A DNA stretch of 64,000 nt from Escherichia coli (GTDB taxonomy: Bacteria; Pseudomonadota; Gammaproteobacteria; Enterobacterales; Enterobacteriaceae): assembly GCF_003018255.1 (NCBI RefSeq), contig NZ_CP027440.1; one strand, 5' to 3'. Below the pieces are notes generated by a model, which did not search any database, was not told the origin of the DNA, and saw only the letters and a program-made list of their open reading frames with translations. The position numbers were made by a program, and so were the translations under genes. Shown one piece after another: positions 45,953-49,127 of this stretch (position 1 is its first letter; each line of letters opens with the position of its first letter).

Positions 45953-47641
45953 TTAGTTCACATCACGACTCATTTTTTTCGCTCTCACCGGCATCCCATT
46001 TGCCACAAAATATCTTGCCGTGCTCCTCGGCAACGCTTCTTGCCCGCGAATCATATCCGCCATTTTCTCGCCAATCATAATCGTCGTAGCGTTCAAATTG
46101 CCGGTGATAATTTGCGGCATAATTGACGCATCCACCACGCGCAGGCCTTCCAGCCCGTGTACGCGGCCTTCGGCGTCAACCACTGCCATCTCGTCATAAC
46201 CCATTTTGCAGGTACCGCACGGATGAAACGCGGTTTCGGCGTGGTTACGCACGAACTCATCGAGCTGCTCATCCGTCTGACATTCCGCGCCGGGGCTGAT
46301 TTCGCGGCCACGATACTGATCCAGCGCCGGTTGATGCATGATCTCCCGGGTGATGCGAATTGCGTCGCGGAACTCCTGCCAGTCCTGCTCGTGCGACATG
46401 TAGTTAAACAGAATCGCCGGATGCTGGTGCGGGTCGCGGGATTTAATCCGCACATGCCCACGGCTTGGCGAGCGCATCGATCCGACGTGGCACTGGAAGC
46501 CGTGCTCTTTCACTGCGTTCGAGCCGTTATAGTTAATCGCCACTGGCAGGAAATGGTACTGAATATTCGGCCACGCAAATTCCTCACGGCTGCGAATAAA
46601 TCCGCCTGCTTCAAAGTGGTTGCTGGCACCAACGCCGGTGCCGCCAAACAGCCACTCCGCACCGATTTTCGGCTGATTCCACCACTGCAGGGCAGGGTAG
46701 AGGGAAACCGGTTCTTTGCACTCATATTGCAGATACATCTCCAGGTGATCCTGAAGATTTTCGCCGACGCCGGGTAAATCATGCACCAGCGGAATATCAA
46801 ACTCCGCCAGCAGTTCAGCGTTGCCGACGCCGGAGCGTTGCAGGATCTGCGGTGAAGCAATCGCGCCTGCACATAACAGCACTTCTTTATTCGCCGCCGC
46901 GCGGGTCGGAATGGTGCTGTCGCCTTCCAGCCACTCGACGCCCACCGCGCGTTTGCCGTCAAAAATGATGTGATCGGTCATGGCGTGAGTACGAATGGTC
47001 AGGTTAGGGCGCGATTTGGCCTGATCGAGATAGCCACGCGCGGTGCTGGCGCGACGGCCCTGCGGCGTGACGGTGCGATCCATCGGGCCAAAACCTTCCT
47101 GCTGATAGCCGTTGAGATCGTCCGTGCGCGGGTAGCCCGCCTGCACGCCCGCTTCAATCATCGCTTCAAACAGCGGATTGACGCCGGGTTTGGAGGTGGT
47201 GACGCTCACCGGGCCATCACCGCCGTGGTAGTCGTTCTCGCCCACATCGCGAGTCTCGGCCTTGCGATAGTAGGGCAGACAGTCGAGGTAGCTCCAGTTC
47301 TCCAGACCGGGTTCTTTCGCCCAGTTATCGAGATCCAGCGCGTTACCACGGATGTAACACATGCCGTTGATCAGTGATGACCCGCCAAGCCCCTTACCGC
47401 GTCCGCACTCCATGCGACGGTTGTTCATAAACGGTTCCGGTTCCGTCTCATAGGCCCAGTTATAGCGTTTACCCTGTAACGGGAACGCCAGCGCGGCGGG
47501 CATCTGGGTGCGGAAGTCAAAGCGATAGTCCGGGCCGCCTGCTTCAAGCAGCAGCACGGTTGTGTTCGGATCTTCAGTCAGACGGGTAGCGAGAACGTTG
47601 CCAGCTGAGCCGGCACCAATAATGATGTAGTCAAATTGCAA
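45953..47641 (-). CDS. betA: Choline dehydrogenase BetA (apparent TTG start)
   Basis: GMC oxidoreductase with [12 protein letters not shown]; start placed at TTG 5 nt after AGGAGG, 13 nt after the betB stop. Confidence 0.85.
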
Positions 47642-47654
47642 ATAAACCTCCTGG

Positions 47655-49127
47655 TTAGAATATGGACTGGAATTTAGCCATCTCAACCTGGATGGACTTC
47701 ACCTGGGTGTAACTCTGGAGCGTCATCACGCCGTTCTCGCGACCAATGCCGGAGTGTTTGTAGCCGCCAACGGGCATCTCTGCAGGGGATTCGCCCCAGG
47801 TGTTGATCCAGCAAATACCCGCTTCCAGCTGATGAATGACGCGATGCGCGCGGTTCAGGTCCGCCGTCACGATGCCCGCCGCCAGGCCGTAGTCGGTATC
47901 ATTGGCGCGGCGAATCACTTCGTCCTCAGATTCATAAGTGAGAAGCGACATCACCGGACCGAAGATCTCTTCGCGCACGATGGTCATTTCGTCGCGGCAA
48001 TCGGTGAACACGGTCGGTGCAACCCATGCGCCGTTATCGAAGCCATCGCCTTTCAGTACATCGCCGCCGCACAGTACGCGCGCGCCTTCCTCTTTGCCTT
48101 TGGCGATGTAACGCAGCACGTTATCGCGATGCGGGAAGCTGACCAGCGGGCCAAAGTTAGTTTGCGGATCGAAAACGTCGCCCGCGCGAATGCGCTCAAC
48201 GCGAGCCAGAATCTTTTGTTCAAATGCGGCTTTGCATTTCGCCGGAATAAACACGCGGGTGCCGTTGGTACACACCTGACCGGAGCTGAAGAAGTTCGCC
48301 ATCATGGCGATATCAGCGGCGAGATCGAGATCCGCATCGTCGAAAACGATCTGCGGTGATTTACCGCCCAGCTCCATGGTCACTTCTTTCAGGGAGGAAG
48401 CCGCCGAGTTAGCCATCACTTTTTTGCCGCTGGCGACACCGCCGGTAAATGACACTTTGGCAATGCCCGGATGCTCGGTCAGATACTGCCCGGTTTCCGC
48501 ACCTACGCCCGGCAGCACGTTAAATACGCCGTCCGGCAGGCCCGCTTCGCTGTAAATTTCGGCCAGCTTTAACGCGGTAAGCGGGGTGACTTCGCTCGGT
48601 TTGAAAATCATCGCGTTGCCTGCCGCCAGCGCCGGGGCGGATTTCCACAAGGCAATCTGGATCGGGTAGTTCCATGCGCCAATCCCTGCCACTACGCCCA
48701 GCGGTTCGCGGCGGGTATAAACAAATGACGTCTCACGCAATGGGATCTGGCTGCCTTCCAGCGACGGGATCAGCCCGGCGTAGTACTCCAGCACGTCCGC
48801 ACCGGTAACGATATCGACGGTTGAGGTTTCCGAATACGCTTTTCCGGTGTCGAGGGTTTCCAGTTTTGCGAGTTCGTCATTGCGTTCACGCAGAATATCA
48901 ACGGCCCGACGCAGAATACGCGAGCGCTCCATAGCGGTCATCGCCGCCCAGATTTTTTGCCCTTGTTGGGCACTCTTCACGGCGCGATCGACATCCTCAC
49001 GCCCGGCGGCCTGCACGGTCGCCAGCACGTTACCGTTGGCCGGGTTAATGGTCTCGAAGGTGCGACCGCTGGTGGCGGAGGTATAACCACCATGTATATA
49101 AAGCTGCTGTTCTGCCATTCGGGACAT
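47655..49127 (-). CDS. betB: Betaine aldehyde dehydrogenase BetB
   Basis: 490 aa from [15 protein letters not shown]; aldehyde dehydrogenase family. Confidence 0.95.

Follow-up and report, generated by a model that had tools for sequence, protein, structure and literature searches.

A UUG start codon is expected to be decoded by the initiator tRNA as fMet, with an efficiency below that of AUG. In Escherichia coli, UUG accounts for about 3% of gene starts and GUG for about 14%, and the output of such codons in reporters ranges from 10 to 100% of that obtained with AUG (10.1101/063800). Start codons are as a rule under weak selection, which favours AUG, and weak starts tend to be paired with a stronger Shine-Dalgarno (SD) sequence (PMC5622118). 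An adaptive non-ATG start has been described in E. coli for lacI: its GTG is conserved across the Enterobacteriaceae, and how GTG and ATG differ in fitness has been measured (Cherrak et al. 2024, PMC11445065). Translationally coupled operon pairs offer a further point of comparison; here the stop codon of one gene lies a short distance from the start codon of the next, with an SD at the end of the upstream gene.

How does betA, which comes last in the betI-betB-betA operon, compare with these systems? Its TTG start is already known and annotated, and is an ordinary member of the UUG class: as in the canonical cases, an in-frame TTG stands 5 nt after a strong SD. Nothing about it is unusual. 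Similar to lacI, betA is a gene of an inducible pathway with a non-ATG start that is conserved across the Enterobacteriaceae. The two differ in that betA encodes an enzyme and not a regulator, and in that the measured effect of the start codon is that of lacI. With coupled gene pairs, betA shares a short gap (13 nt) and an SD placed directly after the betB stop codon. Unlike in those pairs, the dependence of betA on betB is a candidate only, and a hairpin that would mask the SD is unsupported.

The bet operon and the betB-betA junction

The window, which is the whole stretch of 64,000 nucleotides of E. coli DNA analysed here, contains betI, betB, and betA on the minus strand together with a divergent betT, the gene context expected for BetA. 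The organisation of the betIBA operon and betT has been described (PMC5934670), and the layout of the window agrees with it. The first gene of the operon, betI (49141-49728, minus strand), encodes a TetR-type repressor and was identified from the list of open reading frames and the K-12 annotation. It is followed by betB, the gene for betaine-aldehyde dehydrogenase (47655-49127, minus strand), whose 1473 nt equal the length annotated in K-12 and on which the RefSeq annotations agree. Next comes betA, encoding choline dehydrogenase (45953-47641, minus strand; 562 amino acids and a stop codon). The choline transporter gene betT is found on the plus strand at 49857-51890, as judged from the reading frames and comparison with K-12. 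Both betI and betB start with ATG; betA is the only gene of the operon with a non-ATG start.

The assignment of betA draws on the list of open reading frames and on family profiles. The profile TIGR01810 matches BetA with 1028.9 bits (cut-off 732.1), residues 4-537 aligning with profile positions 1-532, and NF002550 scores 1004.1 (cut-off 605), with residues 1-558 on positions 4-560 of 563. The GMC_oxred_N domain extends over residues 3-300 and GMC_oxred_C over residues 393-524, and the FAD-binding GxGxxG motif is present as GAGSAG at residues 9-14. By these matches the 562-residue product initiated at the TTG is the choline dehydrogenase BetA, a GMC oxidoreductase, with a predicted choline-to-betaine-aldehyde activity.

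Direct reading of the minus strand in the 5' to 3' direction gives the betB stop codon TAA (47655-47657), CC, AGGAGG (47652-47647), the spacer TTTAT (5 nt, 47646-47642), and then the TTG (47639-47641), followed by CAA TTT GAC TAC, which encodes QFDY. Read from within the end of betB, the letters are GAG ATG GCT AAA TTC CAG TCC ATA TTC TAA CC AGGAGG TTTAT TTG; the codons after the TTG continue as CAA TTT GAC TAC ATC ATT ATT GGT GCC GGC TCA GCT GGC. The original prediction, that a TTG occupies the place of an expected ATG, 5 nt after AGGAGG and 13 nt after the betB stop, is borne out by this reading. Together with the next T, the AGGAGG core forms a 7-nt match to the consensus SD (AGGAGGT, 47646-47652, minus strand), with a calculated duplex energy to the anti-SD of -11.5 kcal/mol. 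The arrangement of AGGAGG(T), 5 nt, and an in-frame TTG is that of a genuine UUG start, for which an SD is sought at a distance of about 5-9 nt.

The composite sequence AGGAGGTNNNNTTG is found once in the window against 0.06 copies expected from shuffles; AGGAGGT by itself is present in three copies, where 3.7 are expected, and is thus without enrichment. On its own, the count of AGGAGGTNNNNTTG gives modest statistical support for the start; the real support comes from conservation.

The betA start codon in E. coli and other species

In K-12 MG1655 (NC_000913.3), the junction from SD through spacer and TTG to QFDY is identical to that of the window over about 100 nt; the 13-nt gap behind betB and the arrangement of betIBA and betT are shared too. 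The RefSeq annotation of K-12 betA (b0311, NP_414845.1, 325577..327247) begins at this TTG, which is also the PGAP start in strain 104, in AST85 (the most divergent match), and in O157:H7 NE1127. Over the 556 residues that they share, K-12 BetA differs from the BetA of the window by 10 substitutions (98% identity). It is also six residues shorter at the C-terminus, owing to a run of six A in K-12 where the window has seven, just before the stop codon. Neither the substitutions nor the C-terminal difference affects the start. A literature search on the betA start codon, in which the gene name collides with 'beta', found nothing specific, and b0311/BetA was not found among the entries listed of one E. 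coli N-terminomics supplement (TRAINSPOTTER).

Is the TTG a property of a few strains or of the species? Counts were made in a collection of complete E. coli genomes, where the betB/betA junction was found in 5179 of 5426 genomes. Of 5183 E. coli records, 5126 carry without change a 79-mer that has the betA start at its centre; replacing its TTG by ATG or GTG leaves no exact match among these records, all of which are then at least one mismatch away. The comparison of start regions across strains, which had been proposed as a check, was also made with a 30-mer, requiring at least 28 exact bases spanning the start codon: the TTG version is present in 5181 of the 5183 junction records and the ATG version in none. 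Practically every E. coli genome with the junction has the TTG, which is a normal and already annotated feature of betA and not a mutation of one strain.

For the comparison with other species, a separate set was used, with one genome per species; the best 80 betA loci, among which there is no Escherichia locus, were retained. In these 80 loci, the codon homologous to the TTG of the window is likewise TTG in 33 other species, at 78-93% nucleotide identity to the window. They belong to Pseudocitrobacter, Enterobacter, Huaxiibacter, Lelliottia, Leclercia, the Klebsiella oxytoca group, Raoultella, and Citrobacter (C. amalonaticus, C. sedlakii, and Citrobacter R56). The same alignment column contains ATG in Trabulsiella, Pluralibacter, Cedecea, Pantoea, Kosakonia cowanii, Tatumella, and Rosenbergiella, again among the best 80 loci. 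For example, the Trabulsiella junction reads GGAGGTGCA ATG CAA TTT GAC. The TTG thus lies in the column that holds the start methionine of orthologues in at least seven other genera. In most Pseudomonas loci and all Moraxella loci among the best 80, an ATG precedes this column by one or two codons.

The surroundings of the codon are conserved as well. The gap between the betB stop and the betA TTG is 13 nt in the window, 14 nt in Klebsiella, and 12-14 nt in close relatives. All 11 distinct upstream regions of the TTG type keep GGAGGU (-11.5 kcal/mol to the anti-SD), whereas those of the ATG type range from -5.2 to -13.1 kcal/mol. This contrast between an invariant strong SD in TTG-type loci and a variable one in ATG-type loci is suggestive only, as the lineages are not independent.

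Alternative explanations for the TTG

Could translation of betA begin elsewhere? The original prediction had considered an upstream Met at 47686, which would overlap betB by about 30 bp. The extent of the overlap was right (32 nt), and the codon at this position (47684-47686, minus strand) proves to be TTG and not ATG. The nearby ATG (47682-47680) is in the betB frame, and the betA frame, read back to the TGA that closes it (47699-47701, minus strand, in agreement with the limit of the reading frame and a 60-nt distance), contains no in-frame ATG upstream of the TTG. A start at the upstream TTG would add 15 residues to BetA. It is a canonical start codon in an open frame, the reading frame 45953-47686 is listed with it as its start, and it is kept in E. 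coli, Pseudocitrobacter, and Enterobacter-type loci, but the conservation of this stretch is accounted for by the betB coding sequence to which it belongs. It is missing in seven Klebsiella/Raoultella-type genomes, where an in-frame stop lies 45 nt before the downstream TTG, and in three Citrobacter genomes, and in all of them the downstream TTG is kept. In these 10 genomes, the stretch that runs from the preceding in-frame stop to the betA TTG lacks any other in-frame ATG, GTG, or TTG, which leaves this TTG as the sole start that could precede the FAD-binding motif. Moreover, the 15-residue extension remains unaligned to the BetA family profiles and leaves the score unchanged, none of the annotations checked uses this start, and the strong SD is positioned for the downstream TTG and not for the codon at 47686. 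Initiation at the upstream TTG is very improbable. Downstream initiation, which would leave the TTG untranslated, is even harder to sustain. Candidate codons exist in frame, namely a GTG at codon 29, which is the next canonical start, and the near-cognate ATC/ATT at codons 6-8. A start at codon 29 would delete the GxGxxG motif at residues 9-14, which lies in the part that GMC_oxred_N and TIGR01810 cover from residues 3-4 onwards. ATC and ATT support 1-2% of AUG initiation (10.1101/063800), and lie at least 20 nt from the SD. The ATG of orthologues is found exactly at the TTG column.

The remaining alternative is that an ancestral ATG has been altered here, either by a strain-specific SNP or, in appearance only, by an error in sequencing or assembly. 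Beside a natural non-ATG start, a SNP affecting the efficiency of BetA translation and an error at this position had both been entertained at the outset. Nothing favours them beyond the general rarity of TTG starts, which make up about 3% in E. coli (10.1101/063800). Against them stand the identical K-12 junction, the 79-mer shared by nearly all E. coli records, the absence from these records of a version with ATG or GTG, and the occurrence of TTG in 33 other species. These population and cross-species data refute both the SNP and the error, and this is the least probable of the explanations considered. The idea of a natural non-ATG start has held up: the TTG is the RefSeq start in four E. coli genomes, is nearly fixed in the species, is found well beyond it, and aligns with the ATG of orthologues. 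Thus, the TTG at 47641-47639 (minus strand) is in all likelihood the native and long-established initiation codon of betA, with a probability that we put at about 0.93, because of the codon with its SD spacing, its near-fixation, its presence in 33 other species, its match to the ATG column, and the lack of another start that would preserve the FAD-binding motif: 10 species have no other upstream start, and the GTG at codon 29 removes the motif.

Evolution of the codon and its possible role in expression

If the TTG is a start codon, does it evolve like one? Codon 1 is TTG in all 34 distinct TTG-type betA coding sequences and never the synonymous TTA or CTN; this invariance is partly circular, as the TTG clade was defined by having TTG. 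Two internal TTG leucine codons of the betA of the window are mostly CTG in the other TTG-type sequences. Across the 34 sequences, 4 of 41 leucine codons are invariant (with the start codon counted among them), as are 38 of 562 codons overall. The start TTG is invariant whereas leucine codons vary freely, and it therefore does not evolve like an internal leucine codon of a longer reading frame.

The history of the codon was traced by Fitch parsimony on a rough neighbour-joining tree of 54 betA sequences from which the start codon had been masked. On this rough tree ATG is ancestral, there are at least three switches between ATG and TTG, and the ATG of Trabulsiella is nested among TTG lineages. 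The TTG is, on this reconstruction, old but not immutable, and would be older than the divergence among the bet loci of Escherichia, Enterobacter, Klebsiella, and Citrobacter. With at least three switches on the tree, what can be said of selection is limited to the behaviour of the codon, which is not that of an internal leucine codon.

How might a UUG start work in betA? The initiator fMet-tRNA would read UUG by near-cognate pairing, as is general for such codons, and BetA would still begin with Met. The AGGAGGU lying 5 nt upstream, a spacing close to the optimum, would position the 30S subunit and may offset the weaker codon. An invariant GGAGGU in TTG-type loci is consistent with SD compensation for a weak start. 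Judging from the distance, a ribosome that reaches the betB stop codon, 13 nt before the betA start, probably re-initiates or opens up the region, so that the two genes would be coupled. The net result would probably be less BetA than an AUG would give. Lower BetA may or may not be of benefit; one speculation is that BetA would not outrun BetB, and that betaine aldehyde would not build up.

The evidence that bears on coupling lies in the junction itself. The distance from stop to start is short (13 nt) and the SD stands at the end of the upstream gene, as in coupled pairs. In the comparison with K-12, 13 nt also separate betI from betB, there with a weaker SD and an ATG. A hairpin between the 3' end of betB and the betA SD (47645-47699, minus strand) is predicted with a minimum free energy of -26.9 kcal/mol. 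As a coupling device that masks the SD it was rejected: its z-score of -1.0 is not better than that of shuffled sequence. Nor did covariation across 26 aligned junctions lend it support; 89% of cells can pair, in a structure derived from the window itself, and double-sided changes are no commoner than in shuffles. With the hairpin unsupported, the candidate coupling comes down to the 13-nt distance.

Has the TTG been actively kept by selection as a tuner of expression? It has been considered that a weak start would hold BetA below BetB and so guard against toxic betaine aldehyde, or would make betA sensitive to IF3 or stress. Several observations are in keeping with this idea. The TTG has lasted through a divergence that left only 38 of 562 codons invariant, about 5180 E. 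coli genomes include no ATG variant at this site even though AUG is the preferred codon in general (PMC5622118), lacI GTG provides an adaptive precedent in E. coli (PMC11445065), and the last gene of the operon has its sole non-ATG start. On the other hand, many orthologues function with ATG, and Trabulsiella, nested in the TTG lineages, combines ATG with an equally strong SD. The codon, with its three or more switches, is not slower than the average site, and start-codon selection is weak in general (PMC5622118). The data do not show selection preferring TTG over ATG, and active maintenance of the codon is rather unlikely. A more specific proposal is that UUG has been kept by selection in Escherichia, Enterobacter, Klebsiella, and Citrobacter, where a weak codon, an invariant strong SD, and coupling over 13 nt would together fix a low BetA:BetB ratio, or would serve a response to IF3 or stress. 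This proposal is somewhat more doubtful again; if it were true, the low BetA:BetB ratio would prevent the build-up of betaine aldehyde.

The native TTG start of betA confirms that gene callers and curators have been right about this gene, and clears the strain of a suspected mutation; in itself this matters little. There is a practical corollary, in that a pattern search that takes ATG as the back-translation of Met misses N-termini such as that of BetA. The residual value of the locus is as a conserved case in which to ask why operon-distal enzyme genes keep weak starts with strong Shine-Dalgarno sequences.

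Spacing and conservation of the bet junctions

The two intercistronic gaps of the betI-betB-betA operon, both on the minus strand, are each exactly 13 nt long. The betI-betB gap (window 49128-49140) contains a weaker Shine-Dalgarno sequence, GAGGAA, and is followed by an ATG start, while the betB-betA gap (window 47642-47654) contains AGGAGGT and is followed by the TTG start. The betB-betA junction is absent in 247 of the 5426 complete E. coli genomes of the collection, and 10 copies found in this collection are plasmid-borne. Two E. coli records carry the junction while lacking an exact match to the TTG 30-mer, the probe spanning the betA start codon.

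The C-terminal tail of BetA

BetA is 556 aa long in K-12 MG1655 vs 562 aa in the window, and the 562-aa form is also encoded by the three other RefSeq strains compared: strain 104, AST85, and O157:H7 NE1127. The 3' end of betA (window 45953-45980, minus strand) holds a homopolymer run of seven A in the window and six in K-12; the run stands in GCGAAAAAA[A]TGA, where the bracketed A is the extra base relative to K-12. Thus, K-12 BetA terminates in RAKK, 6 residues short of the C-terminus of the window protein. The C-terminal tail is altered between K-12 and the window by this homopolymer indel.

Downstream genes, strain type and RNA features

From what kind of strain does the window derive? Directly downstream of betA, within window 40000-45900, lie hyxB, hyxA, hyxR (LuxR-type), and ipbA, a tyrosine-type DNA invertase gene with its ORF at 44227-44847 on the minus strand. 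Over this region, APEC O2-211 and further extraintestinal strains of avian and human origin share 99.9% identity with the window, but only 1831 of the 5426 E. coli genomes reach a coverage of 80% or more. The window is therefore derived from an ExPEC/APEC-like E. coli. Elsewhere in the window, Rfam and ARAGORN matched a tRNA-Thr(CGT) (10140-10215, plus strand), an IS009 RNA (11456-11656, plus strand, 197 bits), and two adjacent copies of naRNA4, a REP-derived nucleoid-associated RNA (60207-60276 and 60300-60369, minus strand).

Relatives of betA and possible transfer

Among the patterns used in the cross-species betA scan was the peptide MQFDYIII, which, with Met back-translated as ATG, cannot match TTG-start loci; these must therefore come from internal patterns. 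No Escherichia genome was among the best 80 loci of the scan, although about 99% identity would be expected there. Within these 80, the nearest to E. coli betA (window 45953-47641) are two Pseudocitrobacter loci, L005 and L006, with amino-acid identities of 98% and 96% and nucleotide identities of 93% and 90%, respectively. In a rough neighbor-joining tree, E. coli betA falls within an Enterobacter-like clade and not beside Citrobacter. Together, the Pseudocitrobacter affinity and this tree position hint that the bet locus may have undergone an old horizontal transfer.
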